Positions 7,691-49,970 of a stretch of 64,000 nt of DNA are shown here, in pieces; position 1 is the stretch's first letter, and each line of letters opens with the position of its first letter. The notes under the pieces were generated by a model. It was not told the origin of the DNA and did no database searches. It saw nothing but the letters and a program-made list of their open reading frames with translations. The position numbers were made by a program, and so were the translations under genes. The stretch comes from an uncultured Bacilli bacterium (GTDB lineage Bacteria > Bacillota_I > Bacilli_A > RF39 > UBA660): the NCBI GenBank assembly GCA_944331915.1, contig CALVIR010000003.1, positions 3,294-67,293 on the forward strand, given 5' to 3'.

Positions 7691-7723
7691 TAGTAACATA
7701 ATTAATGAATTATTACAATAGAT

Positions 7724-9650: not shown

Positions 9651-9683
9651 CTAACTAAAAGTTAACATACAAATAGCAAAATG

Positions 9684-33102: not shown

Positions 33103-34048
33103 CTACATTACTCCTTTCTATATTTGCAAGTTGCATATAATTTGCGGGAAAACCCATTCTATCTAAAATATTTTCTATCTTAATACTATGTAAATTATAT
33201 GAAAGATTTTCAATTTTTTTATCAAGTTCTAAACTCATATTTTTAAATTCTTCATACGATAGCATTCGTTTCATAATTATAACTAAAGCGAATAAATCAT
33301 TAGTTCCTTTTACATATTCTCCTTCATCACTTTTCTCTATATTTAATATTTGGTGGTAAAAAGTTCCTTCTATATGTTTTTGAGTTCTATTTTCATAAAG
33401 AATATCTTCATGAGCACAGAGATTACGGTAGTTAGATAAGATAGGTAAATAAGTACTGAAATCTTCTAAAGAAATATTATACATTTTACAAATACTAATT
33501 TGATCATCATATTTCATAATAGAAAATAATTCACCAACAATACCAAAGGATAAGACTTTAACTAAAATCCAAAGAGGAATATAACCATAGTTAGACATAT
33601 AATGGGCAGTAGCACTATGTTGACTACCATTTATTCTAATTTGGCGTTTCATCTTTTTGATTAAGTCATTAACTTGTTTCTGTTTATTTTTATCTTTAGT
33701 AAAGTTCCTACTCTTTAAATAAGTCTTTTCTTTATAACCATATTTCTTAGATAGTTGATAAGAAAAGATTGATTTTAAGTTATTTTCTATTATCAAAAGA
33801 TTTTTAAAGAAAATATTTCTTATATCCCGATCGAAGAGAAATAAACTATAAAGTTCTTCAAAGGTAACACCTGGTAAGAAATGTTTATCAGTCATACTTC
33901 TCATTAAAGGATATCTATAACCGGATAAGAAAAAGTAATTTTCTCTTAAGAGAATCTTTTTAGCATATTCTTCATCAGTTATAGTCATACCTTTATATTT
34001 CAGGATTTCTATTTGTTCTTCAAGATTTTTAAACTTTTTATCTATCAT
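33092..34048 (-). CDS. Abi_2 (AbiD/AbiF-type) abortive-infection family protein
   Basis: The N-terminus ...NLEEQIEILKYKGMTITDEEYAKKILLRENYFFLSGYRYPL follows the Abi_2 pattern. It overlaps the htrA start by 11 nt. Confidence 0.6.
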   Translation of the reverse strand: MIDKKFKNLEEQIEILKYKGMTITDEEYAKKILLRENYFFLSGYRYPLMRSMTDKHFLPGVTFEELYSLFLFDRDIRNIFFKNLLIIENNLKSIFSYQLSKKYGYKEKTYLKSRNFTKDKNKQKQVNDLIKKMKRQIRINGSQHSATAHYMSNYGYIPLWILVKVLSFGIVGELFSIMKYDDQISICKMYNISLEDFSTYLPILSNYRNLCAHEDILYENRTQKHIEGTFYHQILNIEKSDEGEYVKGTNDLFALVIIMKRMLSYEEFKNMSLELDKKIENLSYNLHSIKIENILDRMGFPANYMQLANIERSNVDEK

Positions 34049-34132
34049 TTATACCACCTAGATTAGATTATAGCATAAAAAGTGTGTAAAAAATATGAAT
34101 TTTTCATGAAAAATTATGTTATACTTTAGTAG

Positions 34133-35131
34133 TTGATAGAAAGGGTTGATAGGATGCCTGCGACTTTTACCCATGCCTTATTTGCAGATGACATTTATGA
34201 TGAGTTACCAATTGGGTTAAAAAAGCTTCTAATAGATGATAAAGCTAGCTTAAGAATGTTTGCTCAAAGTACAGATCCTTTTATTTTTTATAAATTAGGG
34301 AATAAAAAAGGGAAAAAGATTAGAGAGTTTCAAAGTTATTTTCATAAAAATAAGAGTCAAGAATTCTTTCTTAATCTAATTAACTATATTAAATATAATA
34401 ACTATTATCAAAATAAAGAGATAATGGCTTTTCTTTATGGGTTTATTTCTCATTATGTCCTTGATAGTACGGTTCATCCTTATGTACATTATAAATGTGG
34501 TTATGTAAAAAAAGATGATCCTAATACTTATAAATATAAAAATCAGCATGAATATATGGAGAACTTTTTAGATAATTATTTAATTAAACAAAGAAAAAAT
34601 ATTGATCCTTATAAATATAAATTTTATGACTATTGTTTCATGATTAAGCCTTTTTCGAAAGAGTTAGTTGAGGTTATAGATTATGCTTTTAAAGAGACGT
34701 TTAACTTTAATAATTTTAGTAGTTACTATTATAAAGCTTTAAAAGATATGTATTTTTATTTAAAGTATTTTAGGTACGATAAATATGGGATAAAGATGTT
34801 TATATATAAAGGGGTTGATAGATTTACAAAGCCTAATATGTTTAGATTAGAAGCGATATCTTATCATAGGCCTTTAAAAGATGTTAATAACTATTTGAAT
34901 TTAAATCATCAAGAGTGGTGTCATCCTTGTTTAAAAAGAGAGAAACATAAAGAGTCTTTTATAGAACTTTATGCCATGGCTTTAAAAGAAGCGATGCGGA
35001 TTATTAGAGATGTTAATAGTTATTTAAAGGGAACAAAGAAAGTTGATTTGAAAAAGGACTTTAAGAATTTATCTTATTCAACAGGGAAAAATTGTGATAA
35101 TAAAAATGAGTTAAAGTATTTTGAGCATTAA
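34133..35131 (+). CDS. zinc-dependent phospholipase C-like family protein (putative)
   Basis: ATFTHALFADD ... HYVLDSTVHPYVH His/Asp pattern. This is a weak call. Confidence 0.35.
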   Translation: MIERVDRMPATFTHALFADDIYDELPIGLKKLLIDDKASLRMFAQSTDPFIFYKLGNKKGKKIREFQSYFHKNKSQEFFLNLINYIKYNNYYQNKEIMAFLYGFISHYVLDSTVHPYVHYKCGYVKKDDPNTYKYKNQHEYMENFLDNYLIKQRKNIDPYKYKFYDYCFMIKPFSKELVEVIDYAFKETFNFNNFSSYYYKALKDMYFYLKYFRYDKYGIKMFIYKGVDRFTKPNMFRLEAISYHRPLKDVNNYLNLNHQEWCHPCLKREKHKESFIELYAMALKEAMRIIRDVNSYLKGTKKVDLKKDFKNLSYSTGKNCDNKNELKYFEH

Positions 35132-35183
35132 TAAATTTAAAAAGATGTATAAAATAGTTCTTAAAATATCACTATATTATTAG

Positions 35184-36194
35184 GTGAAGAAAATGTTAAA
35201 TAGTTATAAAATAGTAAGGACTATGGAAGAAGAGATATTATATCTTTATTTAGATGTTAATTATGAATTTGCTAGGGAGTTAAGTGAAAATAGTTTAAAG
35301 AGGAAAGCAGCTAATTATTTAATAACGCATGATATTAAGTTTAAGGGAAATAAAGTAATATTTGTTATTAATGGGGTGGAAGCGAAAGCGATAAATTTAA
35401 ATAAACATAAGATGTACTTAAATAAAGACTTATTTATAGTGGGTGGTAAAGAGAAACTAACTTTAAAAGAAATATTACTTAGTTTATTATTCTCTAATTT
35501 AAGTATCGATTTAGATATTGAATCTTTAAAAGCAATTACGGTTTTATATAGAAGCGAGATTATTAGTAATTTAAAAGATAAAAACTTAAATCTTTTAAAT
35601 ATTACCCTTACCTTTCATAACTATAATTACTATAAATTAACTTATAAAGAAACATATAAAGAGAAAGTAGCAATATATAATAGAGCGATTGATGAGACAG
35701 ATGGAGAGTATTTACTTTATAATAATAATCCGATTAAGTGTTATACTCATCTTGTTAGTAATGGATATACAGAAGAAAATCCTAATATACCTTATACAGT
35801 TAGAAAAGAAAGTCTTTGGGATTTAACTTATCCTAATTATATGCAGGTTAAAAGTTATAAAACTATAGATTTTAAGAAAAAACTTAATATAGATAGAGAT
35901 GACTTTAATTTAAAAATAACTAGTATAAGTAATAGTAATAGAATAAAAGAACTTGAAATTGGGGATAGGAAAATAGAAGCTAGCCTTTTAGCAGTCTATT
36001 TAGATTTGCCATCTACAGATATAACGATTATTGTTAAGAAGGATTATCTAACATTTGTAACAAGAGGAATTGGTAGTGGTTTGGGACTTAGTATAATTGG
36101 TGCTGATAATTTGGCAGAATTAGGCTTTAATTATAGACAGATTTTAAATTATTATTTTAAAAATGTTTCGTTAGTAGTTAAAGAGGCTCAGTAG
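35184..36194 (+). CDS. SpoIID/LytB-domain protein (amidase enhancer)
   Basis: CYTHLVSNGYTEE (compare the SpoIID SSSGGhTE motif). The C-terminus TRGIGSGLGLSIIGADNLAELGFNYRQILNYYF matches the SpoIID GHGVGMSQ...IL.HYY end. Confidence 0.7.
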   Translation: MKKMLNSYKIVRTMEEEILYLYLDVNYEFARELSENSLKRKAANYLITHDIKFKGNKVIFVINGVEAKAINLNKHKMYLNKDLFIVGGKEKLTLKEILLSLLFSNLSIDLDIESLKAITVLYRSEIISNLKDKNLNLLNITLTFHNYNYYKLTYKETYKEKVAIYNRAIDETDGEYLLYNNNPIKCYTHLVSNGYTEENPNIPYTVRKESLWDLTYPNYMQVKSYKTIDFKKKLNIDRDDFNLKITSISNSNRIKELEIGDRKIEASLLAVYLDLPSTDITIIVKKDYLTFVTRGIGSGLGLSIIGADNLAELGFNYRQILNYYFKNVSLVVKEAQ

Positions 36195-36239
36195 AGTCTT
36201 TTTTTTAGTTTTATACATATATTTTAATAGGTGTTTTAG

Positions 36240-36917
36240 ATGATAAGAAAATATAAAGTACTTTTTTTAGTTTTATTTATAACTTTACTTATGTCTTTAC
36301 AATTTGTAGATGCAAAAATAAATGATAAAAAGACGCTTACTAATAGAATTATTACGATTGATCCAGGGCATGGAGGAAGAGATAGTGGGACAAGTTATCA
36401 GAAGATTTATGAAAAAGATTTAAACTTGGAGATTTCTAAAGTATTAAAGAAGGTTTTAGAAGATAAGGGTGCTACTGTTTATATGATAAGAGAAGATGAT
36501 AGTGATTTATCTAGTCGTTGGGATAGTGCGAAAAAACGAGGGGATCTTTATAGACGAATTTTAAAGATTCAAGAGAATAAAAGTGACTTATATTTATCAA
36601 TTCATATTAATTATCACTACTCTACTAATGTTAAGGGTGCTGAAGTGTTATATCATCCGATTAATGATAAAAATTTAGTATTAGCAGAAGCGATTATGAA
36701 AGAATTTAGTAATGATTTAGGGAGCAAGAGAAAAGTTGTTAAAACTAATTTATATTTGTATTCTAATACAAGAGTGCCTGGTGTTTTAATAGAGTGTGGT
36801 TTTATTTCTAATCCTGATGAGAGATATTTACTGCAAAAAGAAAGTTATCAAGTGAAATTAGCGGAAGCGATTTCTAAAGGAGTTCTGAATTATTTTTTAG
36901 AGATTGAAAGGGAATAA
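36240..36917 (+). CDS. N-acetylmuramoyl-L-alanine amidase (Amidase_3, CwlD-like)
   Basis: IITIDPGHGGRDSGT ... YLSIHINY ... GAEVLYH ... GVLIECGFISNPDE. Confidence 0.8.
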   Translation: MIRKYKVLFLVLFITLLMSLQFVDAKINDKKTLTNRIITIDPGHGGRDSGTSYQKIYEKDLNLEISKVLKKVLEDKGATVYMIREDDSDLSSRWDSAKKRGDLYRRILKIQENKSDLYLSIHINYHYSTNVKGAEVLYHPINDKNLVLAEAIMKEFSNDLGSKRKVVKTNLYLYSNTRVPGVLIECGFISNPDERYLLQKESYQVKLAEAISKGVLNYFLEIERE

Positions 36918-36963
36918 CTTTAAAGGAAAAGAATCACCAATTAACTCTTAGTGATTCATTTTT

Positions 36964-38934
36964 TTAAAGGTCAAAGCCTAAAGTTTCTAAAAAGGAAACA
37001 ATATCTCCTTCTTTATATTTTTGATAGTCTCTAGCATTATAACCCACAACTACTCTACTTTCTTCATAAGTACAAGGAACATAGTAAGTTCCAGCATAGA
37101 ATCTACCATCATCGGTCTCTCCTAGCCATTCACCACCATAGTTCATAAAGTTTTCATGAGCATAGGCATCAATAGCATAATACAAATTACCATCTTTATC
37201 TTTGACTTTAAAGGTATATTCAAAGTCTCTTTTAACACCTTTCCAATCACCAACATTGTTAGTAATTAAAGTTACAGCTTCTTGTTCAGTTAAAGTCTTG
37301 GTTGGTGATGATGAAGAACTGTTGTTATCAGTAGTAGTGTTGTTATTTGAAGAACTATTTGTTTCTTCATTAGATGGTGTTGGTGTCTTATTCCATAACT
37401 TGTCTTCAAACTCTCTAACTGTATTTAAGAGTTCAGTATCAAAACCAACCTCTTTAAAAGCATCTTCAACAATCTTTTTTTCTTTAGAAGAAAAGCCTAA
37501 TAGCACTGCAGTTCTTGTAACAGCATAATAACAATCAAGGTAAGTAGGATTACTTGGTAATAGTCTCATGGAATAGAACCAAAGATTAGCTAGATCATCT
37601 AGAGATAGGTTTTTGGTCATAAGATAAGCAGCTTTTGAGATGATAACACTATCATCATGTTCTTCTTTAAATTTCTTATCTTTGGAATAGACCATGTTAG
37701 AATCTTTGATATTGCGGCCATTTTTACTACTTATATAACCATCTATTTTTTCGTTTTCATTATAGTACGCTTCAATAATCATACCCATAATATCAGCATA
37801 TGATTCAGATAAAGCTTTCTTTTCTAGACTATTATTTTCATAAGATGCAGTAATGTAGTCAAAGACACCATGGGTATATTCATGAGCGATAACCTCAATA
37901 TTGTCATTGTATAAATTGTTATAGCCAAGGGCGATAATATTGGGATAAATAAAACCGGCATTATCTTGAAAGTTAGAAACAGTTTCATTAGGAAGAACTA
38001 AAGTTTTGACATGGGTGATAATACTAATACCTGTATCTTTCATACCTTCATTATCTAAAGATAGATAATTAAATTTATTAAGGTAGTAGTTATAACATTT
38101 TTGAATAGTAACGATGGCATTGATAGCATTTTCTTTTTCAGTATCAATTTTAGCATTTTTGTGCCAAGAATAGATAGTAAATGTAGTTGTACCACTTTCT
38201 ATTTTAGCGCTTGAAGGTTTATTGATGAAAATATTTTTTTCTTCGTCTAATAGTTTATAATAGCTGTTATCGTCTAGAAAGTAGTCTAATTCTTCTTTTT
38301 CATAAGTATTAAGTGGAAAGTATTTTTTGATTGTCTTTTTAGTATTGGCATCTATTATAATAATATAGTTTCCATTATCACGATAATTGATAGTACAAAT
38401 ATAAGCGAGGGTAAAATTGTTATCTGTAGGATAAATTACAAGATCTTTTGATGTTACTTTAGTATTATTTCCTAGTTCTTTTTTGATAATATCGTCTAGT
38501 TCCTCTTCTTTAATTTTTGGTTCAACAGAAAGATCATCTACTTCTTTTAACTTGTTAATTACTCCAGCTACATTACCATCTTTATCAGTATAGACAATTA
38601 AATCACCATTATAAACAGGTATTCCTTTATATAGTTGTTTAAAACTATAAGTATTTAGATAGTTAGAATTACTTATTCTATCTTCTTTTAGGTCTTTTTC
38701 TAGATCGATATTTAACTCATCACTAATAAGAGAAAGAGATTCTCTTGCAGAGGCAAAGTCTTTAACAATTACACTTGAATAATTACCAGAGATATTATTC
38801 ATGACTAAATTAACTGTTTCTCCTTCAGGAGTTGTTTTTGCTTCTTCTTTTTTAAACAAAAAAGTAATAACTGCCCATACTGAAACTACTAGTATAATAA
38901 ATAATACGAGGATAATAATAATTTTCTTCTTCAT
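36964..38934 (-). CDS. membrane-anchored M4 (thermolysin-like) metallopeptidase with N/S/T-rich linker and C-terminal domain
   Basis: VIAHEYTHGVFDY...ESYADIMG aligns with the thermolysin HExxH...EAISDIFG motifs. The N-terminus has a TM segment. Confidence 0.65.
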   Translation of the reverse strand: MKKKIIIILVLFIILVVSVWAVITFLFKKEEAKTTPEGETVNLVMNNISGNYSSVIVKDFASARESLSLISDELNIDLEKDLKEDRISNSNYLNTYSFKQLYKGIPVYNGDLIVYTDKDGNVAGVINKLKEVDDLSVEPKIKEEELDDIIKKELGNNTKVTSKDLVIYPTDNNFTLAYICTINYRDNGNYIIIIDANTKKTIKKYFPLNTYEKEELDYFLDDNSYYKLLDEEKNIFINKPSSAKIESGTTTFTIYSWHKNAKIDTEKENAINAIVTIQKCYNYYLNKFNYLSLDNEGMKDTGISIITHVKTLVLPNETVSNFQDNAGFIYPNIIALGYNNLYNDNIEVIAHEYTHGVFDYITASYENNSLEKKALSESYADIMGMIIEAYYNENEKIDGYISSKNGRNIKDSNMVYSKDKKFKEEHDDSVIISKAAYLMTKNLSLDDLANLWFYSMRLLPSNPTYLDCYYAVTRTAVLLGFSSKEKKIVEDAFKEVGFDTELLNTVREFEDKLWNKTPTPSNEETNSSSNNNTTTDNNSSSSSPTKTLTEQEAVTLITNNVGDWKGVKRDFEYTFKVKDKDGNLYYAIDAYAHENFMNYGGEWLGETDDGRFYAGTYYVPCTYEESRVVVGYNARDYQKYKEGDIVSFLETLGFDL

Positions 38935-38989
38935 TTTTACACTTACTCCTAACCAATTAACTTATAATTATTATACTATATATTAAGTC

Positions 38990-39220
38990 TAATATGAAAA
39001 AAATCAAAGTTTTTAGGCTTTGAATCTTTCGTATTATTGCATTTCTTCCCAAGTTTTACCATCTAGTATTTTAGCGATTTCTTCGGTTGATGGTAATTTA
39101 TCTGTTTTTAAAATATCAGTTAAGTTAAATAATTTAGTTCGAAATAATGGGTATTTGCTCGCTTTGATAAAATTCGTTTTGACAAATTTATCAACAATAA
39201 AGTAATTGTGTTCAATATTT
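38990..39220 (-). pseudogene. duplicated 3'-terminal fragment (~59 codons) of gene 50752..51789; left copy of a 231-bp direct repeat
   Basis: About 95 % nucleotide identity to 50706..50936. It translates to ...VDKFVKTNFIKASKYPLFRTKLFNLTDILKTDKLPSTEEIAKILDGKTWEEMQ*. Confidence 0.8.
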
Positions 39221-39591
39221 TTATCATATCAATGACATTGTTATACCAATTTTACTTAAAGATAACAAAAATTGTTTAACAATCGGTATAATAATCGTTA
39301 AAATAGCAACATTATTGTACTCTTTTACAACTGTATTATGAAAAGCCTATGCAAATCTATCTGACGAAACAATTAAATCTTTATAGTTTTATTTATCATC
39401 AAACCAGTAGCATAAAAATATATGCTATCTTTGCTTTCGTTCGTAATTAAAGGATAAAACTCTTTAAAAGGCTTTTTTTATAAAACTTTGAAATATCAAT
39501 TTGATAATTAGATTTCTTCATTATAATCCTCTCTTACTTTAACAACTTTATAATATATATTTTGTTATATTAAAATAAATTATTTTTAGAA

Positions 39592-40233
39592 TTAAAGTTT
39601 CTTTTTTTTAATTTTATCTTTTCTGATACCATTACTATAATTTTGTAACACCTCTATTGTAGTTGGGGGAACTAATTGAGCAATTGTATTCCAATCATTA
39701 TTTTCAAGGGCATTTCTTACAGTTTTTGCACTAATAGATTGACCATTTCTATCAGTAAATCTAGGTATCTCAATAACCTCAATACCATATAAAGGTAAAT
39801 TATTTTTTAATTCTCTATTATATGATGCAGTAATAATATCAGTTTTTTCTTCTCCTACAAATCTTTTTTTAACATTTAATGTAGGAGCTATATAATCAGT
39901 AAATATTTCCCTATCTAGTGATACATCTATAGTAACATCAGTTTTTTCTTCTCTATTAAAGTACTCTGGAAAGATCATTGAGGAACCGAAAATTTTACCA
40001 CTAGGAATAACTGTAACATTAGAAAAATCTTTACAACCATTCTGCACCATTTTATATCTGTCATCAAACTTAAATACAGATTTATCATCTTGAACTACTA
40101 TAACAAATAATTCTTCTACTTGTTCAGAAGCATATTTTATTAAATTATAATGTCCATAAGTAAATGGATTACAATTCATTAGTATTGCACCATTAGGACC
40201 ATCTGGTATATCTAGACTCTTTAACATAGACAA
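39592..40233 (-). CDS. CitC-C-terminal-like nucleotidyltransferase (HxGH superfamily: adenylyl/cytidylyltransferase)
   Basis: NCNPFTYGHYNLIKYASEQV...LFVIVV resembles the [citrate lyase] ligase adenylyltransferase domain (NPFTxGH). Confidence 0.5.
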   Translation of the reverse strand: MSMLKSLDIPDGPNGAILMNCNPFTYGHYNLIKYASEQVEELFVIVVQDDKSVFKFDDRYKMVQNGCKDFSNVTVIPSGKIFGSSMIFPEYFNREEKTDVTIDVSLDREIFTDYIAPTLNVKKRFVGEEKTDIITASYNRELKNNLPLYGIEVIEIPRFTDRNGQSISAKTVRNALENNDWNTIAQLVPPTTIEVLQNYSNGIRKDKIKKKKL

Positions 40234-41663
40234 ATATTCATCAATAAATTTATTATTTGAAAATACATTTCTTTTTTGACTTTTTTTACAGGAATTATAC
40301 TTTCTTTATTTTGAGGATTAATTGTTAATAAGTTTTTCTTAATTTTATCATATATATAATCAGCAATATAACCATTTGCAATATGATTACAATGAGCAGG
40401 TTTATCAAGAAAATAATTGTGTAAAGTATTATTATTAAAAACAGGTAATAAGGTTTCTACATCAGTAAATCCTAATCTAGCAAGTTTTTCTTTTTCATCT
40501 GTTGATATAATAAAAATCATTTTATCGCCATGTTTTATATTTACATTGTCAGCAATTCTAACTTGTTCAGGTAATTCCATAGCTCTTAAACCATAATTAT
40601 TAACTGAATAATCCATATTATTAACATTAACTTTTCTTTGCAAGTAACTTGCTATAGTATGTTTATCATCTACTAAAGCACCATATACCATACAAGGACC
40701 GAATATATTAATATCAAATGCATAATCAAAACTCTTATCTGTAGTATATCTAATTCCATTAATACTTTTACAAAAATCATTATCAGAATCTGCTAATCTG
40801 CAAATGCCATTTTTTAGTATAGTTCCAGGAGATAAATTTTCCTTGTCTATATAATCTTCAGTAAATAAATCCCCCATAACTGTTTCTACTAAATTTCTTA
40901 TTTCAGGATCATTCATATAGTTACTAAGGTAATATATATAATTAACTTTAGCCTTCATTCTCAATTGTTCTACAAATGTTAATTCTGTAAATTGTTCATT
41001 ATTAGGAAATTCAAACACATAAGTTTCAAAAGATTGACCTTTTAAAAAACTATTAACAAAATAGTATATTTCTGCCTCATTACATAATTCATTTATATTT
41101 AATATACTCGAAGATAAGTCATTATCAAATCTACAATACCTATTTATTTCTTGTTTTAAATCCATCGAAAATAAATCTGTATCAATTAATAATGATTTTT
41201 CCTCTAAAATAGAACTTAAATAATTATCATAATCAATAGGAATAATAGAGGTAGAGAATTCATTTCCATAGACATTTATATAATTAAATAATTCTTGTGA
41301 TAACCCACCTCTAACAAAAACCTTTTTCGGTTTTCTACTTCTTAAATAATTAATAATTTTATCATTATTAGCATATAAACATTTCCATCTAGTTGAATCA
41401 ATTGATGTATTCTTCCATTCACTATTGTCTTTATTATTTTTTTCTTTTGTATATATAGCCAATTCATCAATTGTAATTTTTAAACTACTATCATTACGAA
41501 TACTATTTATAAAAGAATCATAAGTTATAAATTGCTCATCATTCAAGGCTACAATTGATTCTTGATTTTGCAAAAATATATTAATTAATTTATGTTTTAA
41601 ATTAATATCGGATTCACTTATATGAATTACACTATTTTCTTTATTCATTACTATCCCCCTCAA
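40221..41663 (-). CDS. hypothetical protein (480 aa)
   Basis: I recognise no family. It is soluble and sits inside the island operon. Confidence 0.5.
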   Translation of the reverse strand: MRGIVMNKENSVIHISESDINLKHKLINIFLQNQESIVALNDEQFITYDSFINSIRNDSSLKITIDELAIYTKEKNNKDNSEWKNTSIDSTRWKCLYANNDKIINYLRSRKPKKVFVRGGLSQELFNYINVYGNEFSTSIIPIDYDNYLSSILEEKSLLIDTDLFSMDLKQEINRYCRFDNDLSSSILNINELCNEAEIYYFVNSFLKGQSFETYVFEFPNNEQFTELTFVEQLRMKAKVNYIYYLSNYMNDPEIRNLVETVMGDLFTEDYIDKENLSPGTILKNGICRLADSDNDFCKSINGIRYTTDKSFDYAFDINIFGPCMVYGALVDDKHTIASYLQRKVNVNNMDYSVNNYGLRAMELPEQVRIADNVNIKHGDKMIFIISTDEKEKLARLGFTDVETLLPVFNNNTLHNYFLDKPAHCNHIANGYIADYIYDKIKKNLLTINPQNKESIIPVKKVKKEMYFQIINLLMNICLC

Positions 41664-41672
41664 CTTTAAATA

Positions 41673-42425
41673 TTATTCATTAATATTTTTCAACAAAAAA
41701 TTAACAATTTCATTATCATAATTATATAGTTCGTGTTTCCCATCTTCAATAGTTGTCAATTTTAAATTATTCTTCTTACAAAAATCACTAATATCTTTAT
41801 AAAGAACTGTCTTATCTGCTGTTCCATGAATTATTGAAATATTTTGAAACTCATAATTTTTAACAGCATTATCGCCATTTTTAAATTGAAGATAAGCATC
41901 TTTAGATATTTTAATGTTATTATACAAAGGCATAAATTCATTAGTATTAAAATAATCAAGTGATATTCCTGATTTATGTTCCATAATCTCACAAAAATTA
42001 ATAGCCGGACACATTAACATTGTTTTTTCTATATTTTTATTATTCTGCATTAACTTATTTAAAATCACAAAACCACCAAAACTACAGCCAAACAAATATA
42101 TAGGTACATTATACTTTGTTTTTACATATGTAATAATTTCTTCTAGATAGGTTATACACAAACTTAAATTAAAAAGTGAAAAATCTGTTTTATCTTCTCC
42201 ATGACCAGGAAAGTCAAAAGAAATAATACCAATTTTATTTTTTAATAAATCATCATAAAATCTTGTTGCCCATGTTTTGTTGCTACCTAACCCATGACAA
42301 TAAATTATTATTTTATTCATATTATCATGAGGTATGGCACTAAAAGTATTAATTTTATCATTAATTAAATAATTAAATTTAACTCTTAAATCATTTTTTG
42401 CCTTTTCAATAATCTTTTCGTTCAT
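41673..42425 (-). CDS. alpha/beta-fold hydrolase
   Basis: HGLGSNK..., the nucleophile elbow GCSFGG, and a C-terminal Asp/His. Confidence 0.65.
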   Translation of the reverse strand: MNEKIIEKAKNDLRVKFNYLINDKINTFSAIPHDNMNKIIIYCHGLGSNKTWATRFYDDLLKNKIGIISFDFPGHGEDKTDFSLFNLSLCITYLEEIITYVKTKYNVPIYLFGCSFGGFVILNKLMQNNKNIEKTMLMCPAINFCEIMEHKSGISLDYFNTNEFMPLYNNIKISKDAYLQFKNGDNAVKNYEFQNISIIHGTADKTVLYKDISDFCKKNNLKLTTIEDGKHELYNYDNEIVNFLLKNINE

Positions 42426-42455
42426 AAGTAATCCTCTTTTCCATCACTAATTATA

Positions 42456-43268
42456 TCATAACTTTTTAATATATTTTTCAAATGTTTCTTTATTAGGATA
42501 ATCTGTATTATCTAATTCATAATGCAACTTCTCATAGTCATAATCAACTATATTTTCTGTAAGAATAATTTCATTATTAACATTTTCTAAAACATAATAC
42601 ACTGCTTGTTTATCAATCGCTACACCTGTTCCATTAAGTGAATAAAAATCTATATTATCTTTTGTATGTTTTCTAAAGAAATGATAATGTCCATAAATTA
42701 TACCATTGTATTCATCTACCTTTTTTCCTCCAAATAATGGATCATTATTTGCTGATATTAAAAGTGGTGTTTGATTAGTAGAAAACCTCATATCTTGTGG
42801 TGTATTAGTTTCAAAAAAAGAGCTAACATCTTCCCCATTATATTTCCATACACCAGAATAATCATATCGTACATCAATAGGAAAATGACACAATGCGATT
42901 TTTTGATTACCAAGTTCAATGTCTATTGAATGAGGCATTCTCTGTAATGCACAAATTTGTTTACTTGTCAATGCTTCTCTTGTCCATACAGCATTATAAT
43001 AACGTGCAATATTGTGTTTTTTTAAATAATCAAAACTATCAGCACCAAATATTACATATTCTTCAGCATTTCCTAGAATATTTATAATATTATTTTCTAA
43101 AATTAACTCTAAACATTCACTAGGATGATTACCAAGTCCAATAACATCCCCTAAAGAATAAATTGTCTTTATATTATTATTTTTTATGTCCATAAGAACT
43201 GCTTTTAATGCTTCTAAATTTGCATGAACATCTGATATCAATGCTATCTTTTCTTGCATAGCACACAC
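42456..43268 (-). CDS. calcineurin-like metallophosphoesterase
   Basis: IALISDVHANLEAL ... LGDVIGLG ... GNAEEYV are MPP signature blocks. Confidence 0.65.
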   Translation of the reverse strand: MCAMQEKIALISDVHANLEALKAVLMDIKNNNIKTIYSLGDVIGLGNHPSECLELILENNIINILGNAEEYVIFGADSFDYLKKHNIARYYNAVWTREALTSKQICALQRMPHSIDIELGNQKIALCHFPIDVRYDYSGVWKYNGEDVSSFFETNTPQDMRFSTNQTPLLISANNDPLFGGKKVDEYNGIIYGHYHFFRKHTKDNIDFYSLNGTGVAIDKQAVYYVLENVNNEIILTENIVDYDYEKLHYELDNTDYPNKETFEKYIKKL

Positions 43269-43330
43269 CTCTTTTCTGTTGATATTTTGTTTATATTATG
43301 TTAATATATACCATCAAGGAAGTGGTATAT

Positions 43331-43822
43331 ATGATAATTGTCGAAGGATTAGATGGTTGTGGAAAAACAACTTTAATAACTAATTTAGCCAAAGAAGGAA
43401 AACAATTAGTAATTCCAAACAATGACTTTGAAAATTTTTATAATAAATATGTAGATACTTTTGAGAGATCTTCAATTAATTCAATAATGGATCGTTCTTT
43501 TATAAGTGTAATGGTTTATGGAAAAGTATTAAGTAATAAAACAAGAATTTCTGAACAAGATTATCTAAAGTTACTTGAATTATACACTAAAAACAAACCT
43601 AGTATTATATATTTATATGCACCACAAGAATTACTATTGGAAAGACGAAAAGATGATAGAAGTGATAGATTAGTATTATTGCATTTATATAAATCACTAT
43701 TAGAAGAATTTGATTATAGACTAGAGCAAGCAAGTAATTTTATGCCAGTTTACAAAATTAATACAGCTAATTACAACGAACAACAAACTTTTGAACAAAC
43801 CAAGAAATTAATTAAACTTTAA
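43331..43822 (+). CDS. P-loop nucleoside-monophosphate kinase, thymidylate-kinase-like
   Basis: IIVEGLDGCGKTTLI (compare the Tmk FEGIDGSGKTT) and DRSFISVMVYG (compare DRYxxSxxAYQ). I chose the 43331 start because of the AGGAAG RBS; the 43298 start in the ORF track is also possible. Confidence 0.6.
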   Translation: MIIVEGLDGCGKTTLITNLAKEGKQLVIPNNDFENFYNKYVDTFERSSINSIMDRSFISVMVYGKVLSNKTRISEQDYLKLLELYTKNKPSIIYLYAPQELLLERRKDDRSDRLVLLHLYKSLLEEFDYRLEQASNFMPVYKINTANYNEQQTFEQTKKLIKL

Positions 43823-45081
43823 TTTCTTTTTTTAATTAGACTCTTTGCATAATTTGGAATAGTAATTGAGCTTATAATACTAGAATCATATGTCGTATTT
43901 TGATGCCTATCAATTTCAAATGAAGGCTTTAAGGCAATTTTTAATAATTGTTCAATTGATAATTCACTTTGCATTAATATTGCTTTATCATAATTATCAG
44001 AAAAATCTCTATTTATTTCAGAGCGAGGAAAAAAAGCAATTTTTAAATTATCTTTATCCTGAAACAGAGACTCTAAATAATTCTCTATATATTTCTTAAT
44101 GTAATCACTATCAGTTGCAAGTACATCATATTGCGTTAATAGTGCATTTATATTCTTGATACAAGCATTCAAATCTCTCTGAATAAATGCTGTTCTATCA
44201 AATACATTTTCATTTAACATATAATTTCCATTGCTAACAAGCCTTGACATAAAAACAGGTGATAATACAGAATAATAATAAGCAGCACCAAAATTATCAG
44301 TAGTGAAAAAGTTAGGATTTTGTTGGTAACTCCAATTTTGTTGAAAAACACCATTCATATTATAATTCCTAAAAATATTATCTATTTTTAACATTTCGCT
44401 TGTATCGCAACAATTTAAATCACCAGAAAGTCCATATTTTAAAATTTGATTTTCAAATCGATTATTAAAACCATGAAAACAATATCCTTTATCTATAAAA
44501 TTCTGCTTTAATGTTATTAAGCATTTATCTTTTTTACCATCATTTTTTGAAACTATATTTTTAAATAAAACATTGTCACATCTATACAATAAATCTTCAA
44601 AACTTAATGATACTTTGCATTTTTTTATAATTTCATCTAAATACTTATCTATAAATTTATAATCATGAATTTTATCTTGATTCATAATCAGAAAACAATA
44701 TATTTTTTGTAAAAGTAAAGCTTGTAAAAATAATTGTGTATCTGCCAAAGCAGTAACATTAACACCTATTTTTCTTAAATCAAAACTAAAATTTCTACTC
44801 TGAATAATTTGTAAAATTTCTTGTATTTTCTCACTATTTAATAATTTTTCAAATTGTTTAACAAAGGCTACATCATTTTCTTGGTAATTATGATATATTT
44901 TCATATCATCTTGTATATCTATTTTTTTCAAATGTTTATGTTTACTAATTTCACTAACATATTTTTTTAACTCACTATCACTTATTTGATATTTATGACA
45001 TATACTATCAAATTTTTCTTGGGAAAGTTCGATATCACATTCATCTGTAACCATTTTAGAAATTAAATCATATAAATTCAT
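43819..45081 (-). CDS. hypothetical protein (420 aa)
   Basis: I recognise no family. Confidence 0.5.
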   Translation of the reverse strand: MNLYDLISKMVTDECDIELSQEKFDSICHKYQISDSELKKYVSEISKHKHLKKIDIQDDMKIYHNYQENDVAFVKQFEKLLNSEKIQEILQIIQSRNFSFDLRKIGVNVTALADTQLFLQALLLQKIYCFLIMNQDKIHDYKFIDKYLDEIIKKCKVSLSFEDLLYRCDNVLFKNIVSKNDGKKDKCLITLKQNFIDKGYCFHGFNNRFENQILKYGLSGDLNCCDTSEMLKIDNIFRNYNMNGVFQQNWSYQQNPNFFTTDNFGAAYYYSVLSPVFMSRLVSNGNYMLNENVFDRTAFIQRDLNACIKNINALLTQYDVLATDSDYIKKYIENYLESLFQDKDNLKIAFFPRSEINRDFSDNYDKAILMQSELSIEQLLKIALKPSFEIDRHQNTTYDSSIISSITIPNYAKSLIKKRN

Positions 45082-45542
45082 AGCAAATCTCCATATTCAG
45101 TAAGATATAACTCTAATGCTTTTCTTTGATAAGGTAATTCTAAGTAGTCTAATGCATTATTTATATCTATTAAAACTAATTCTGATCCTATTTCTAAAGG
45201 CTCAACTATATCTTCTTCTATATCTACTAAAAAAATATGTGCTAGTGATTCCATATGCTTTTTATTTCTAGTAAACCAAAAACAGTCTATAGAACAAAAA
45301 TCTTTAATTGTTTTTACTTTACAACCACTTTCTTCTAAAAATTCTCTATATAAACATTCTTGAAATGTCTCACCAGTTTCTTTACCTCCACCTATTAATG
45401 ACACTTCTTCATTTTTTTTAGTCAAATATATTTTTTTATCTTTAACATAAATGCCAAAACAAGTTTCACGGAAATCATATTTAATATTTTTATCTTTAAT
45501 TCCTATTTGTACTTTTTTCATTAGTCCTCCCATACTTTCCAA
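45078..45542 (-). CDS. NUDIX hydrolase
   Basis: Nudix box GGGKETGETFQECLYREFLEESG. Confidence 0.75.
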   Translation of the reverse strand: MESMGGLMKKVQIGIKDKNIKYDFRETCFGIYVKDKKIYLTKKNEEVSLIGGGKETGETFQECLYREFLEESGCKVKTIKDFCSIDCFWFTRNKKHMESLAHIFLVDIEEDIVEPLEIGSELVLIDINNALDYLELPYQRKALELYLTEYGDLL

Positions 45543-46300
45543 GGTGCTTTATCAGCCTTAATTAATTTATTCAAATATTCTCTTTCACTTTGAAAATCCA
45601 TACATTGCCAAAAGCCTAAATGCTTATATGCAGAAAGTTGTTTATTTTCCACTAATTTTTCCAAAATTTCTTTTTCAAAGGATGCAGAATCAGGAGTCAA
45701 ATATTTTAATATTTCTTTATTAACAACCATAAATCCACCATTAATCCATTCATCCTCTTTTAAAAATTTTTCTCTAAAATATTTGACATTTGTATCCTCT
45801 AATTCAACAACACCAAATCGTTCTTCTCTTTTAACAACTGTAATAGTTGCAAGAGACTTTTGTTTCTTATGAAATTCATATAAATCTTTAATATCTATAT
45901 CTGATACTGCATCAGCATAAGTCAGAAAGAATGAATCGTCATCATCATCTAAATATTTTTCAATTCGTTTTAATCTGCCACCTGTTAAAGTATTCAAGCC
46001 TGTATCTACTAAAGTAATATTCCAGTCCTCACTATTATTATTCAATATCTTTAGTTCTTGATTCTTAAAATTAATACTAATATCTTTCTTCTGATTCATT
46101 AAATCTAAAAAATATTTTTTAAAATCCTCTTGTTTATATCCTAAACATAATATAAAATCTTTAACGCCATAGTGATAATACATTTTCATAATATGCCAAA
46201 CAATAGGCATATCCCCAACAGTTACAAGTGGTTTTGGAGTAGTATCGCTCTCTAATTTTATCCTGCTACCCTTACCGCCTGCAAAAATAACACATTTCAT
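45521..46300 (-). CDS. rfbF: glucose-1-phosphate cytidylyltransferase (RfbF/DdhA-like)
   Basis: MKCVIFAGGKGSRI...TPKPLV..G.MPIVWHIMKMYYHYGVKDFILCLGYK...WNITLVDTGLNTLTGGRLKR is near-collinear with RfbF. Confidence 0.8.
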   Translation of the reverse strand: MKCVIFAGGKGSRIKLESDTTPKPLVTVGDMPIVWHIMKMYYHYGVKDFILCLGYKQEDFKKYFLDLMNQKKDISINFKNQELKILNNNSEDWNITLVDTGLNTLTGGRLKRIEKYLDDDDDSFFLTYADAVSDIDIKDLYEFHKKQKSLATITVVKREERFGVVELEDTNVKYFREKFLKEDEWINGGFMVVNKEILKYLTPDSASFEKEILEKLVENKQLSAYKHLGFWQCMDFQSEREYLNKLIKADKAPWKVWED

Positions 46301-46317
46301 ATAAAATCCCCCTTTAC

Positions 46318-47997
46318 TTAAATTTTTAAAATTGTTGCATTATTTATAGATGTATTCCAATAATAATCATTTTCTTTCTTTGCAACTACAATTTTAATGC
46401 CTAGTTTTTCAGTCAAAAATGAAATTTCATTAAAATTCAATTCTAAATCCTTAATAACTACTGTTCTATCTATAAAATCAATTTTATCTATATCAATGTT
46501 TTTGCCAATCTTTTCTACTAAAAAAACAATATACTTTTTCTCTGGAAACTTAAAATTATCGTATTTTTCTTTACAACGATTTCGCTGAACTAATGGGCAA
46601 TTATTACAATTAATACATATATCAGTATTATAGAAAAATTTTCTATCAGGCTGTCCTAATGCATAGCCTAATGCACAACTTGTAGTTTGAAAAATAGGAT
46701 AATCTTTGTTATTTACTAAATCATTCCATAGGTAATCGTATGCTTCTTTATTCCATACATTATCAGATTGTAATGCCTCTTTACGGTTATTCTTTAAAGC
46801 ATCCCATTCTATATTATCTATAATATCATCTGTAGTTTTTAAACCTATTGCAACAGAAGCAATACAATATTTTTTTACAAAATTGTATATTTTTTTTACA
46901 TCTTCCTTTTTAGAATTTTGTGGAATAAAAGGTCTCCAATAATGAATTATCTTCTTTCCTTTTTCTGATAATCTAATAAAATTATTTTCAATTATCTTTT
47001 TATTTACTCCCAATTCGATATCTTTATCTAATCCTGAATAACTTAAGAAAAATAAAAAATTATGACCTCGTTTCTCATATTTATCAATAAAGTCAATAAA
47101 ATCTTCTGGAATTTTACACTTTGTTATAAAAACTATAGGATTTTTTATTTCTCTTTTCATTAATATTTCTATCAATTGTTTTAAATATTCTACATTATCA
47201 ACAGTAGAAAATGCATCAGTTTGAGAAAATAAACATAAAGGCATATCTTCAATATAAAATTTACTTGATAACAATAAATCAACTGCTTTTTCAGGACTTA
47301 CTAACGTAATAGGCTGAATTCGATTCAATTCTCTTTCCTTTAAAAAACAATATTTACACTGTTTTGGACAACCTTGGATCGGATTTAATACTAGCCAAGT
47401 CGCATGAACATCTACGACTGGGTAAAACTTTGGAGTCTTTCTTTTCTCATAATTATCTAAAAACTTTGAAGCATCTAAAATCATTTTTTTAAATTCATCA
47501 GACAATTTTAAATCTAAATCATAAGCAATAGAAAAAACAATTTCAAATAGTCTAGCTATATTAAAATATAAAAAATCTTCTTCTTTTGCATACCCATATC
47601 TTATTTTATAATGTCTATAATCTTTAATTTCTAATACTTTTTCAGATACTTGACCATAAACTGTATTAAAACTTAATATTGCTTCTGCCACATTTTCAAA
47701 TTTTATATAACTGTAATTATAATCATAATTTTGAAAATCTAAATCTAATTTCCAACACAAACTAATTAATTGTAAAACTACATCTGATAATTCATCACCC
47801 AAATCATTAATATTTCTTCCATTCTCACCGTAATTTTTATGTTTTGAAATTAAATAACTAAAATGACCTAATTGAACATTAAGTTCTGCTAATACAGTAA
47901 TGGCATCCCATTCCTTATTTTCAGTAATTTTAAATCTTTCTTTTAATTTAATAGCATTATCATAATTATCTTTCAAAAATACTTTAATATCTTCCAT
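46318..47997 (-). CDS. fusion protein: N-terminal MazG-like NTP pyrophosphohydrolase domain plus radical SAM domain with C-terminal auxiliary Cys cluster
   Basis: N-domain: LGDELSDVVLQLISLCWKLDLD (MazG EExGDxLxQ motif). From aa ~200: NPIQGCPKQCKYCF (Cx3Cx2C, SplB/COG1533-like). C-terminus: CINCNNCP...C ferredoxin-like motif. Confidence 0.6.
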   Translation of the reverse strand: MEDIKVFLKDNYDNAIKLKERFKITENKEWDAITVLAELNVQLGHFSYLISKHKNYGENGRNINDLGDELSDVVLQLISLCWKLDLDFQNYDYNYSYIKFENVAEAILSFNTVYGQVSEKVLEIKDYRHYKIRYGYAKEEDFLYFNIARLFEIVFSIAYDLDLKLSDEFKKMILDASKFLDNYEKRKTPKFYPVVDVHATWLVLNPIQGCPKQCKYCFLKERELNRIQPITLVSPEKAVDLLLSSKFYIEDMPLCLFSQTDAFSTVDNVEYLKQLIEILMKREIKNPIVFITKCKIPEDFIDFIDKYEKRGHNFLFFLSYSGLDKDIELGVNKKIIENNFIRLSEKGKKIIHYWRPFIPQNSKKEDVKKIYNFVKKYCIASVAIGLKTTDDIIDNIEWDALKNNRKEALQSDNVWNKEAYDYLWNDLVNNKDYPIFQTTSCALGYALGQPDRKFFYNTDICINCNNCPLVQRNRCKEKYDNFKFPEKKYIVFLVEKIGKNIDIDKIDFIDRTVVIKDLELNFNEISFLTEKLGIKIVVAKKENDYYWNTSINNATILKI

Positions 47998-47998
47998 T

Positions 47999-48859
47999 TT
48001 ATCTCCATCCTTTTTCTCGTAATGTTAACTGTTTTTCATAAGATTCTTTTTCAGGACTATTTAGTGCATTTACTTTATGTCTAATTACACTTAAATAATA
48101 ATTAATTAAATTATTCTTTATAGTGCCATCTTGTACACCTAAAATTATATCTTTATAAAATTTATCACAATGTGATAAAACATCATATGCTTTTTTTATT
48201 TGATTATCATAGTTATCATTTCTCATAATACTATTTTGACTTTTATAATAATGATATCCAATATAAGGAATACTAGAAACACTTTTTGCTTTACTTAAAA
48301 TTAAAGACGTAAGTGCAAAATCTTCTTGTAACATTCCAACAGGAAATTTAAAATTATTTTTTTCCCAAAAGCTAAAATCATAAGCATATAGCCAAGACGG
48401 GCTATATATTTCAAAGTTTTTTGCAAACTTATTTAATGCTTCTATCCCATTAATATTATAAAACTCATCTGTAATATATTTTTCATAAACTTTGTTGTCA
48501 TTATCAACCATAATACCTTGGTATCGAATCATATCATTTTCATTATCAATAATAGATAACTTTTCAAGTAAACTTTTTTCGATCCAATCATCAACATCAA
48601 CAAAAATTATTGCATCGCCATTAACTTTTGATAATCCATAATTTCTTACCTTACTTATATCTTCAAATGAAACTTCATAATATTTAATGTTTGGAAAATT
48701 AAAGTCAGAATGAATAATATCTGCAGTATGATCTGTGCTACTATCATTTATAAATATAATTTCATAATCTGAATATGTCTGTTGTCTAATTGAATTTAAA
48801 CATCTAGAAATATATTCTTGACCATTATGTGATGGAACAATAATACTAAATTTTTTCAT
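47999..48859 (-). CDS. family 2 glycosyltransferase
   Basis: FSIIVPSHNGQEYISRCLNSIRQQTYSDYEIIFINDSSTD ... FVDVDD. Confidence 0.8.
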   Translation of the reverse strand: MKKFSIIVPSHNGQEYISRCLNSIRQQTYSDYEIIFINDSSTDHTADIIHSDFNFPNIKYYEVSFEDISKVRNYGLSKVNGDAIIFVDVDDWIEKSLLEKLSIIDNENDMIRYQGIMVDNDNKVYEKYITDEFYNINGIEALNKFAKNFEIYSPSWLYAYDFSFWEKNNFKFPVGMLQEDFALTSLILSKAKSVSSIPYIGYHYYKSQNSIMRNDNYDNQIKKAYDVLSHCDKFYKDIILGVQDGTIKNNLINYYLSVIRHKVNALNSPEKESYEKQLTLREKGWR

Positions 48860-49394
48860 TTTTCCTCCTAATAAAGATAAAAAGACAAACGGATGAATGC
48901 TTGTCTTTAGTTAAATTTATTATATTGCAGAATTAACCATCCGGTTTATCTGCCGATTATACTATCATACAATTAACTAAATGTCAAAGGTCATAGCAAA
49001 ACTGTGGGTGTAAATTTTTTCTATTTCATTCCAGCGATTACTTTCATACATATATCTTAATGTAATCACATAATTAGTACCTTTAACACTCCATCTCATA
49101 CCTGATTATTTTAATCTAAGTAGTACTACAGTTTTATTAGAACTTTCTGCTGCACCACTACTTACAAACCAACCATTGTGTTCATAAGTAGAATAATCTA
49201 TTTCATTTTTGTTATTCTCTAAATAAACTGGCAAATTACAAACAGTCTTAGGCATTGTTATGTTACTATATTTATTCAATTATTTAACTATTAAGTTATA
49301 TTCTCTAGAATAACAATATCCAATTATTTGTTCTTTAACTTTCTCTACCTTTTTAATAACTAATGACCATACGGTGCATGGTCATTAGTCTAGG

Positions 49395-49970
49395 GTTTAA
49401 TTCCCCGTTGCTTGCAACGTAAGGCCGAGCGTAGTATTATAAATACGGAGTGAGGGCGATGTTATGGAAGAGAGTCAATATCTATATTTGTCGCACAACG
49501 TAAGTAATCTTGTTTACCACATTGTATGTCCAGCAAAATACCGTCGTGTAGTATTTGATGAAACAGTGGATGAACATCTTCGACAAATTTGTCTTGAGAT
49601 AGAGAAACGTTATGACTATATTGTTTTTCTAGAGATAGGTACGGATAAAGATCATATACATTTTCTAGTTCAAAGCACACCAAACTATGCACCTAGTAAA
49701 ATAGTTCAAATAATAAAGAGCATAACAGCAAGACAAATTTTTGTCGAATGTCCTCAAGTAAAGAAACAACTATGGGGAGGACAGTTTTGTTCAGACGGTT
49801 ATTTTGTGGCTACAGTAGGCAAAAATCAAAATGAATCGGTAATAAAAGAATATGTAAAAAATCAAGGTAAACAAGATGCGGAATACAAGCAGTTATATTT
49901 GAAATTTCAACAGCAAAAATAACATCGCTTTGGGAAGATACCCCGTAGCTTGCTGCGGGGAGTATTCATT
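49395..49970 (+). mobile_element. IS200-type insertion sequence (tnpA only) with terminal hairpins
   Basis: Left hairpin cgttgc-ttg-gcaacg (49407..49420); right hairpin ccccgtagc-ttg-gctgcgggg (49941..49960). Confidence 0.6.
49464..49922 (+). CDS. tnpA: IS200/IS605-family Y1 (HUH) transposase TnpA
   Basis: A 152-aa protein with VYHIVCPAKYRR...HIHFLVQSTPNYAPSKIVQIIKSITARQIF, the classic IS200 TnpA. Confidence 0.85.
   Translation: MEESQYLYLSHNVSNLVYHIVCPAKYRRVVFDETVDEHLRQICLEIEKRYDYIVFLEIGTDKDHIHFLVQSTPNYAPSKIVQIIKSITARQIFVECPQVKKQLWGGQFCSDGYFVATVGKNQNESVIKEYVKNQGKQDAEYKQLYLKFQQQK

Follow-up and report, generated by a model that had tools for sequence, protein, structure and literature searches.

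A 64,000-nucleotide stretch of contig CALVIR010000003.1 (assembly GCA_944331915.1), from an uncultured member of the Bacilli (RF39; UBA660) and hereafter called the window, encodes a 559-residue protein in which an all-alpha domain of the nucleoside triphosphate (NTP) pyrophosphohydrolase superfamily (the N-domain) is fused to a radical S-adenosylmethionine (SAM) enzyme with a second set of cysteines. The family to which this protein belongs always travels with nucleotide-handling genes on mobile islands, and it therefore probably makes a modified nucleotide or nucleotide-sugar. Our best explanation, held tentatively and a little short of probable, is that a mobile cassette modifies a nucleotide-linked substrate and has the fusion protein as its key enzyme. 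The boundaries of the open reading frame (ORF) are those given in an earlier annotation made from the sequence (the original prediction), an identical protein is present in the database (P0001), and the peptides quoted in that prediction were all located in the ORF (LGDELSDVVLQLISLCWKLDLD at residues 66-87, NPIQGCPKQCKYCF at residues 205-218, and CINCNNCP at residues 461-468). Because about 60 full-length fusion clusters of 556 to 562 residues were recovered from many samples by a word-indexed protein cluster search, and because the reverse domain order also occurs, the fusion is not an assembly artefact. The two-domain architecture that had been predicted is real and beyond chance.

The original prediction did not recognise this fusion as a described enzyme, and searches of Pfam, NCBIfam, source cluster names, and the literature likewise returned no description of the fusion or its cassette. 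A direct search of the full protein against PDB sequences gave noise only, cluster look-ups gave no source name for the fusion itself, and the names on related clusters were limited to "hypothetical protein," "DNA repair photolyase," and "NUDIX domain-containing protein." The family is compact and is without a name or an earlier description in the searched libraries and literature.

The C-terminal 365 residues constitute the radical-SAM enzyme, which carries the SAM cluster motif and four further invariant cysteines. Seven cysteines, namely C210, C214, and C217 of the CX3CX2C motif and C441, C461, C467, and C475, are each 100% conserved in an alignment of 133 distinct homologous domains, drawn from Firmicutes, Actinobacteria, and Streptomyces plasmids, whereas C464 of CINCNNCP is kept in only 46%. 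The second set was therefore read as C-x19-C-x5-C-x7-C, and it is a putative binding site for an auxiliary Fe-S cluster. Thus, a second cysteine set does exist as proposed earlier, but not as the CxxCxxC in which it was quoted. The SPASM motif consists of a C-terminal CX9-15GX4C...CX2CX5CX3C...C, and the twitch motif is half of it. A SPASM or twitch auxiliary domain, which had been put forward for a profile check, was rejected: there was no match to the SPASM family in Pfam (PF13186), and the invariant spacing is unlike either motif. The corresponding check for the radical-SAM core located the right region (PF04055, residues 205-326, E = 2.2e-5), although at 25.1 bits it stayed below the gathering cut-off of 29.5. 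The CX3CX2C motif and a partial TIM-barrel fold are both present, as in other members of the radical-SAM superfamily. An AlphaFold2 model built from 63 homologues is confident (predicted local distance difference test [pLDDT], 93.7; predicted template modelling score [pTM], 0.85), and all 22 Foldseek matches in the PDB at E <= 0.001 are radical-SAM enzymes. No specific NCBIfam family was identified, with PapB, KamA, PA0069, and Rv2578c matched only at E values of about 1e-3 to 0.15; the PapB and AmcB matches (E = 0.0015 to 0.026) span the N-terminal cluster motif alone. The original prediction placed the core in an SplB/COG1533-like context. Spore photoproduct lyase (SPL; SplB, COG1533-type) is the top structural match of the radical-SAM part, but the identity is 13%, and none of the family models of the COG1533 group (SPL, PA0069, Rv2578c) matched significantly or above noise. 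SPL also lacks a second cluster, and its gene context differs from that of the fusion.

The N-domain of the window matched no Pfam family at E <= 10, and hence neither of the MazG models (PF03819 and PF12643), while 5 of 18 relatives touched PF12643 or PF03819 under the cut-offs (E = 2e-4 to 5e-4). A profile of the 18 members gave nine weak matches among PDB sequences, eight of which are MazG-type pyrophosphatases; these eight include 4qgp (E = 0.0097), 5ie9, 1vmg, YpjD, and DCTPP1/RS21-C6. Fold similarity to the all-alpha NTP-pyrophosphohydrolase superfamily clearly exceeds background, and the best fold matches are the dimeric dUTPases (phage phiDI/phiNM1 Dut, 5myd; Campylobacter jejuni, 1w2y; Leishmania major, 2yay). 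The N-domain thus belongs to this superfamily, with a shape closest to dimeric dUTPase, and the MazG label of the original prediction is right at the level of the superfamily but wrong at the level of the family.

In MazG, the metal-binding tetrad has the spacing E-x-x-E...E-x-x-D. The second half of this tetrad is present in the N-domain, where D68-E69-x-x-D72 aligns with the canonical EExxD (tetrad residues E69 and D72), but in an alignment to YpjD the position of the helix-2 ExxE is occupied by Q42-x-x-H45. Since the first ExxE is replaced by QxxH, hydrolytic activity of the N-domain cannot be assumed. W30, E38, Q42, and E69 never vary among 172 family sequences; conservation is about 99% for D68 and D72 and 95% for H45, and position 119 is acidic in 97%. 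The conserved polar site comprises E38, Q42, H45, D68, E69, D72, E/D119, and R/K128; judging from this conservation, it is under strong selection, yet it is not the standard tetrad. In contrast to the dimeric dUTPases and the wider all-alpha superfamily (MazG, HisE, DCTPP1/RS21-C6, and MazZ), the N-domain of the window is unmatched by Pfam, has QxxH in place of ExxE, and has an additional invariant glutamate (E38).

Within its superfamily, the N-domain forms a tiny separate family with a possible pyrophosphohydrolase activity. When 1.84 billion representative proteins were scanned in full with a profile of the N-domain (HMMER, E <= 0.001), only 245 clusters were retrieved. Among the best 150 of these, 96 are stand-alone proteins of about 180 to 220 residues, two have the N-domain followed by the radical-SAM enzyme as in the window, and nine have the reverse order; at least seven are fusions with a NUDIX hydrolase, and one is a fusion with a family 2 glycosyltransferase (GT2; P0131). 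The word-indexed search returned about 55 stand-alone radical-SAM clusters beside the full-length fusions. In the loci examined, the N-domain was never found apart from radical-SAM, NUDIX, or GT2 partners.

A survey of the genomic neighbourhoods of homologous fusions, suggested in the original prediction, covered 23 genome loci (designated L below) and further metagenome contigs, and it revealed recurring nucleotide-handling neighbours (NUDIX hydrolase, kinase, and nucleotidyltransferase). In every Firmicute or actinobacterial locus with enough flanking sequence, the radical-SAM gene either includes the N-domain or lies next to a gene for it. According to our tally of about 16 locus types, this pair is accompanied by a NUDIX hydrolase in about 13, a HprK-like P-loop kinase in about 10, an NTP_transferase in about 8, and a GT2 in about 4. 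The kinase has about 370 residues, a weak match to TIGR04355, and matches to HprK structures at E = 7e-4. Minimal modules consist either of a radical-SAM gene and a gene for an N-domain-NUDIX-extension protein, preceded by a LysR regulator and with a prophage-like stretch alongside (L026 to L028), or of a radical-SAM-N-domain fusion and a NUDIX gene (L029 and L030). The family occurs in Bacilli of the human and animal gut as well as in actinomycetes. The genes for the HprK-like kinase in L017 (5391-6510) and for the N-domain in L031 (7439-7993) are each split into two adjoining ORFs, which may reflect a frameshift or a bin assembly error.

Radical-SAM homologues were also identified by tblastn on 36 plasmids, which carry sister systems without the N-domain and without the HprK-like kinase. 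The homologue on pFRL6 of Streptomyces sp. F12 aligns over its full length, four cysteines included. Its operon (L035, 3866-11403) encodes a P-loop kinase, two dCTP-deaminase-like proteins, a cytidine deaminase, a SAM methyltransferase, a UTP-glucose-1-phosphate uridylyltransferase (UGPase), the radical-SAM enzyme, a family 4 glycosyltransferase (GT4) matching PF20706 ("GT4-conflict"), and a HAD hydrolase; it adjoins Tra genes, and a canonical MazG is encoded nearby. This operon resembles a pyrimidine or DNA hypermodification pathway. On other Streptomyces plasmids (L034 and L036 to L038, approximately 6500-10100), the homologue directly follows a gene for a MurA-like enolpyruvyl transferase, with a GT4, a hexapeptide transferase, and a class II aldolase upstream and either a 3'-5' exonuclease and a small AAA ATPase or a NUDIX hydrolase and an ABC transporter downstream. 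The succession of MurA homologue and radical-SAM gene recalls the pairing of MurA-like PolA/NikO with the octosyl-acid cyclases PolH/NikJ in peptidyl-nucleoside biosynthesis. The substrate of the radical-SAM cyclase PolH is a nucleoside monophosphate, 3'-enolpyruvyl-UMP, and its CX3CX2C is preceded by about 220 residues (PMC5365060). The placement of this motif in PolH resembles that in the fusion (C210), a likeness of motif position and context; PolH differs in that it is reported with a single cluster, and the island in the window is without a MurA-like gene.

A more distant radical-SAM clade on Rhizobium and Nostoc plasmids (E = 1e-29 to 1e-38 to the family hidden Markov model) is paired with related AAA ATPases. 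The module of sister radical-SAM enzyme, 3'-5' exonuclease, and small AAA ATPase recurs on Rhizobium and Streptomyces plasmids. In Rhizobium, an HD protein is added to it and its neighbours are toxin-antitoxin, helicase, and ABC-three-component genes; on a Nostoc plasmid, the AAA ATPase alone follows the radical-SAM gene, with toxin-antitoxin and integrase genes around. The radical-SAM-exonuclease-AAA module looks like an undescribed conflict system.

The substrate of the fusion is taken to be nucleotide-linked because all companions handle nucleotides or nucleotide-activated groups. The nucleotide-centred chemistry proposed in the original prediction is supported by the gene context in the window, which includes a NUDIX hydrolase, a glucose-1-phosphate cytidylyltransferase, and a thymidylate-kinase-like protein. 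The sister genes count in favour as well, as the dCTP deaminases, cytidine deaminase, UGPase, GT4, and MurA-like proteins beside them are all nucleotide or nucleoside diphosphate (NDP)-sugar enzymes. That one polypeptide hydrolyses and radically transforms one NTP, as suggested earlier, is only one of several readings, and the NUDIX and GT2 fusions fit a shared recognition module at least as well. We favour a nucleotide-recognition module over a simple house-cleaning hydrolase because the N-domain is fused, in different genomes, to three enzymes acting on nucleotide-linked molecules (radical-SAM, NUDIX, and GT2), because its invariant site is remodelled, and because kinase, nucleotidyltransferase, and NUDIX genes recur together.

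The substrate would be an NDP-X compound or a (d)NTP, with CDP-glucose or a pyrimidine nucleotide as the candidate in the window. The N-domain would hold the metal-phosphate and nucleotide part, which it may cleave or may only bind, and would offer the remainder of the molecule to the radical-SAM site, at which the 5'-deoxyadenosyl radical would take a hydrogen from the sugar or base; the second cluster could transfer electrons or ligate the substrate. The kinase and nucleotidyltransferase may build or re-activate the nucleotide-linked intermediate, the GT2 may transfer or decorate the product, and the NUDIX hydrolase may strip the nucleotide handle or prune the pool. The nearest parallel in pathway logic is the biosynthesis of fosfomycin, in which the nucleotidyltransferase Fom1 attaches a cytidine monophosphate handle, the radical-SAM enzyme Fom3 carries out the modification, and the hydrolase FomD removes the handle. 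By analogy, the NTP_transferase, the radical-SAM/N-domain protein, and the NUDIX hydrolase could take these parts here, and the putative order from kinase to nucleotidyltransferase, radical SAM, and NUDIX resembles this handle logic, although the Fom proteins come from unrelated families (Fom3 is cobalamin-dependent, and FomD is a DUF402 protein). Comparison can also be made with viperin and PolH as nucleotide-acting radical-SAM enzymes.

Several points weigh against this explanation. CDP-glucose was considered as an obligatory substrate, a candidate weakened by the clean absence of the cytidylyltransferase gene from two otherwise syntenic close relatives (L003 and L014); since the gene is missing there, CDP-glucose cannot be obligatory. 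The minimal modules (L026 to L030) contain neither the GT2 nor the NTP_transferase, the conserved carboxylates of the N-domain would fit catalysis as well as mere binding, and the functional steps are all derived from gene context.

Alternatively, the N-domain may hydrolyse (d)NTPs or (d)NDPs, as dimeric dUTPase and the T4 dCTPase do, and the resulting (d)NMP would be modified by the radical-SAM domain, re-phosphorylated by kinases, and incorporated into DNA or RNA, where the GT2 would glycosylate the base. Such a channel would be an oxygen-independent analogue of phage hypermodification, as in T4 glucosyl-hydroxymethylcytosine (hmC) and base J, by which mobile elements mark or protect DNA. 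The dUTPase-like fold of the N-domain and the thymidylate-kinase-like gene within the island are consistent with this pathway, as are the composition of the pFRL6 cluster directly beside Tra genes, the junction of the island with conjugation genes in one genome (L039), the variable flanks of the island, and the occurrence of GT2s unaccompanied by membrane, flippase, or polymerase genes. However, the canonical ExxE is replaced, the fusion has no match in 50,697 phage records (tblastn) or in PHROGs, and there is no conserved DNA-binding, polymerase, or restriction partner. Further, a hydrolase fused to NUDIX or GT2 seems redundant, and the similarity to SPL is not distinctive; we consider this pathway unlikely. 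SPL as the top structural match could also point to DNA repair coupled to pool sanitation, in which an SPL-like lyase would mend a lesion while the MazG-like and NUDIX proteins would clean damaged nucleotides. One homologue was named "DNA repair photolyase" by JGI, and MazG and NUDIX are classic house-cleaning families. This role is nevertheless highly improbable given the low identity to SPL, the failure of the SPL, PA0069, and Rv2578c models to rise above noise, the missing second cluster in SPL, and the kinase, nucleotidyltransferase, and glycosyltransferase partners and island carriage, which are not repair-like.

A role in immunity would require the radical-SAM enzyme to make a toxic or chain-terminating nucleotide analogue upon phage or plasmid attack, with the MazG-like, NUDIX, and sister 3'-5' exonuclease and HD proteins controlling or detoxifying it. 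Precedents are the viperins and prokaryotic viperins (pVips), the ddhNTP synthases, which likewise are radical-SAM enzymes expected to act on a nucleotide and are found near nucleotide kinases and in mobile or accessory regions; the fusion shows no sequence or distinctive structural similarity to viperin or pVips, in line with the original statement that it is not a viperin. A further precedent is Ophion, a validated anti-phage system of the radical-SAM protein OpnA, the PHP protein OpnB, and the phosphoribosyltransferase OpnC (10.1101/2025.09.30.679545). The sister module on Rhizobium and Streptomyces plasmids (AAA ATPase alone on Nostoc) is similar to Ophion in joining a radical-SAM enzyme to nucleotide-metabolism and proofreading-type nuclease partners; the partners themselves differ, and the likeness is one of gene composition. 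The toxin-antitoxin surroundings of the Rhizobium and Nostoc copies, the ABC-three-component and helicase genes in Rhizobium, the prophage-like regions beside the minimal two-gene modules, and the mobile island with its adjoining IS200 element also argue for immunity. Against it, PADLOC-DB 2.0 gave no match for the fusion or any core protein (generic NUDIX and P-loop matches for neighbours only), the Bacilli operon is large and biosynthetic-looking (GT2, acetyltransferase, and two nucleotidyltransferases), one homologue lies in a housekeeping context between secDF and rpoB, and there is no sensor or regulator typical of abortive systems. An immune function is distinctly unlikely. We regard as equally doubtful the synthesis of an envelope glycan precursor, in which CDP-glucose or another NDP-sugar would be converted to an unusual sugar that GT2s place on teichoic-acid-like or other surface polymers, with the NUDIX hydrolase controlling the pool as GDP-mannose hydrolase does in colanic acid clusters. 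The operon does contain a GT2, the glucose-1-phosphate cytidylyltransferase, and a TagD/CitC-like nucleotidyltransferase. Three GT2s are present in L013/L040, L017, and L018, together with an acetyltransferase and a HAD hydrolase in L040 and a polysaccharide deacetylase in L017 and L018, and L032 has Epimerase_2, NTP_transf_5, AMP-binding/PP-binding proteins, and ABC exporters. Yet only about one locus type in four has a GT2, the Bacilli islands lack a priming transferase, flippase, polymerase, or exporter, and their proteins all appear soluble; the cytidylyltransferase is dispensable in L003 and L014, and the thymidylate-kinase-like protein and dUTPase-like domain would be left unexplained.

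To our knowledge, nucleotide-acting radical-SAM enzymes are few, and each has opened a field (MoaA, QueE, viperin, and PolH). A more far-reaching proposal, which we judge rather unlikely, is that the fusion represents a new oxygen-independent route, in mobile elements of anaerobes and in actinobacterial and rhizobial plasmid sister systems, to a modified pyrimidine nucleotide. This nucleotide would either enter DNA and be glycosylated or act as an analogue against viruses. With the first fate, the route would parallel, by radical-SAM chemistry, the base J pathway (TET/JBP plus glucosyltransferase) and the T4 hmC pathway, and it would serve to evade restriction or to mark self DNA; with the second, the enzymes would form a family separate from viperin. 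The NTP-pyrophosphatase-like partner, which is obligatory and specially adapted, is exchanged among a radical-SAM enzyme, a NUDIX hydrolase, and a glycosyltransferase. Identifying the product would add a new member to the nucleotide or NDP-sugar metabolites, to the DNA modifications, or to the immune nucleotides, and would assign a function to the QxxH variant of the all-alpha NTP-pyrophosphatase fold. The system lends itself to direct testing: a single soluble protein is involved, the island is 9.4 kb long, and the minimal versions comprise just two genes.

Table 1 Features of the fusion gene, its island, and the sister loci (positions are those of the window unless another locus is named)
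Feature	Position	Strand	Remarks
Conserved island, 9.4 kb	39577..48987	minus	Nucleotide similarity to related genomes starts and stops here
Whole fusion ORF	46318..47997	minus	559 residues, ATG start
N-terminal all-alpha domain, dimeric-dUTPase/MazG superfamily	47428..47997	minus	Residues 1-190, six helices; invariant W30, E38, Q42, E69; near-invariant H45, D68, D72
Radical-SAM core, partial TIM barrel	46708..47415	minus	Residues ~195-430
CX3CX2C motif, SAM-binding [4Fe-4S] cluster	47347..47370	minus	C210, C214, C217; invariant in 133/133
Second cysteine set, putative auxiliary Fe-S cluster	46573..46677	minus	C441-x19-C461-x5-C467-x7-C475; 133/133
C-terminal alpha/beta subdomain	46321..46572	minus	Residues 476-559, ends in conserved YYWNTSINN; W547 in 130/133
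GT2 glycosyltransferase, first operon gene	47999..48859	minus	PF00535, E = 1.7e-26; position conserved in L001-L014
Glucose-1-phosphate cytidylyltransferase	45521..46300	minus	TIGR02623, 306.8 bits, above equivalog cut-off of 300.25
NUDIX hydrolase	45078..45542	minus	Nudix box intact; most constant partner of the radical-SAM/N-domain pair across loci
Conserved 420-residue protein	43819..45081	minus	No family match; syntenic in Bacilli loci
Thymidylate-kinase-like P-loop kinase	43298..43822	plus	Opposite to operon; phrog_761, E = 6e-21; dNK match
Metallophosphoesterase	42456..43268	minus	
Alpha/beta hydrolase	41673..42425	minus	Fused to NUDIX in L040
480-residue domain	40221..41663	minus	No family match; with next gene spans 39592..41663
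CitC-C-terminal/NMNAT-like nucleotidyltransferase	39592..40233	minus	
Sister radical-SAM/AAA loci (Rhizobium, Nostoc, and Streptomyces plasmids)	L041 6965-10756; L042 6971-8779; L037, L038 8956-11849		

The fusion gene is the second gene of a tightly packed operon within a conserved island (Table 1). Relatives with 72 to 97% nucleotide identity match the window from 48987 to about 39577, and the flanks are unrelated in other genomes. In L039, the same island abuts conjugation genes of a type IV secretion system. The G+C content of the island is 24 to 25% (approximately 38 to 48 kb), compared to 29 to 31% across most of the remaining window, and the sign of the GC skew flips at approximately 34 to 38 kb and again near 52 kb. 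The low G+C content and the skew changes (34000-48000) fit a foreign or rearranged block of DNA.

Neither the 420-residue nor the 480-residue protein of the island matched Pfam, NCBIfam, PHROG, or PDB profiles. Kinship of the two with the HprK-like kinase found with the pair elsewhere was considered and rejected, as they are unrelated in hhalign. The 420-residue protein has sharply conserved motifs (GYCFHGFN, FTTDNFGAAYYYSVLSPV, and E-x-DRH-x-N), and its H-G / Y-Y-S / E pattern is loosely reminiscent of ADP-ribosyltransferase-type sites. The 480-residue domain and the CitC-like nucleotidyltransferase form a single 686-residue ORF in L039 and L040, which in the window is split by a one-base frame change in an A-run (gtaaaaaaagtcaaaaaagaaatg; 40221-40300, minus strand). 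The same split was found by tblastn in L003 and L014; a genuine frameshift, phase variation, and an assembly error common to these genomes are all conceivable explanations.

A promoter-like site (TTGACA-17-TAGTAT with an upstream TG; 48987-48959, minus strand) has its -35 box at the island edge (48987), and a hairpin with a T-run (48908-48881, minus strand) precedes the GT2 start at 48859. The region between 48881 and 48987 may be a leader or attenuator; a permissive Rfam scan identified no family and no riboswitch for the operon leader. Apart from two neighbouring tRNA genes (58933-59093, plus strand), the window contains no Rfam match. A gene for an IS200/IS605-type Y1 transposase (49464-49960, plus strand; PF01797, E = 5.5e-36) lies directly upstream of the island and is followed by a G+C-rich terminator-like hairpin (49941-49960). 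Just past the other end lies a remnant of a gene for an AMP-binding (adenylating) enzyme (39227-39471, minus strand), which matches residues 16-104 of an intact 606-residue gene product encoded after the island in L039 and resembles a decayed gene.

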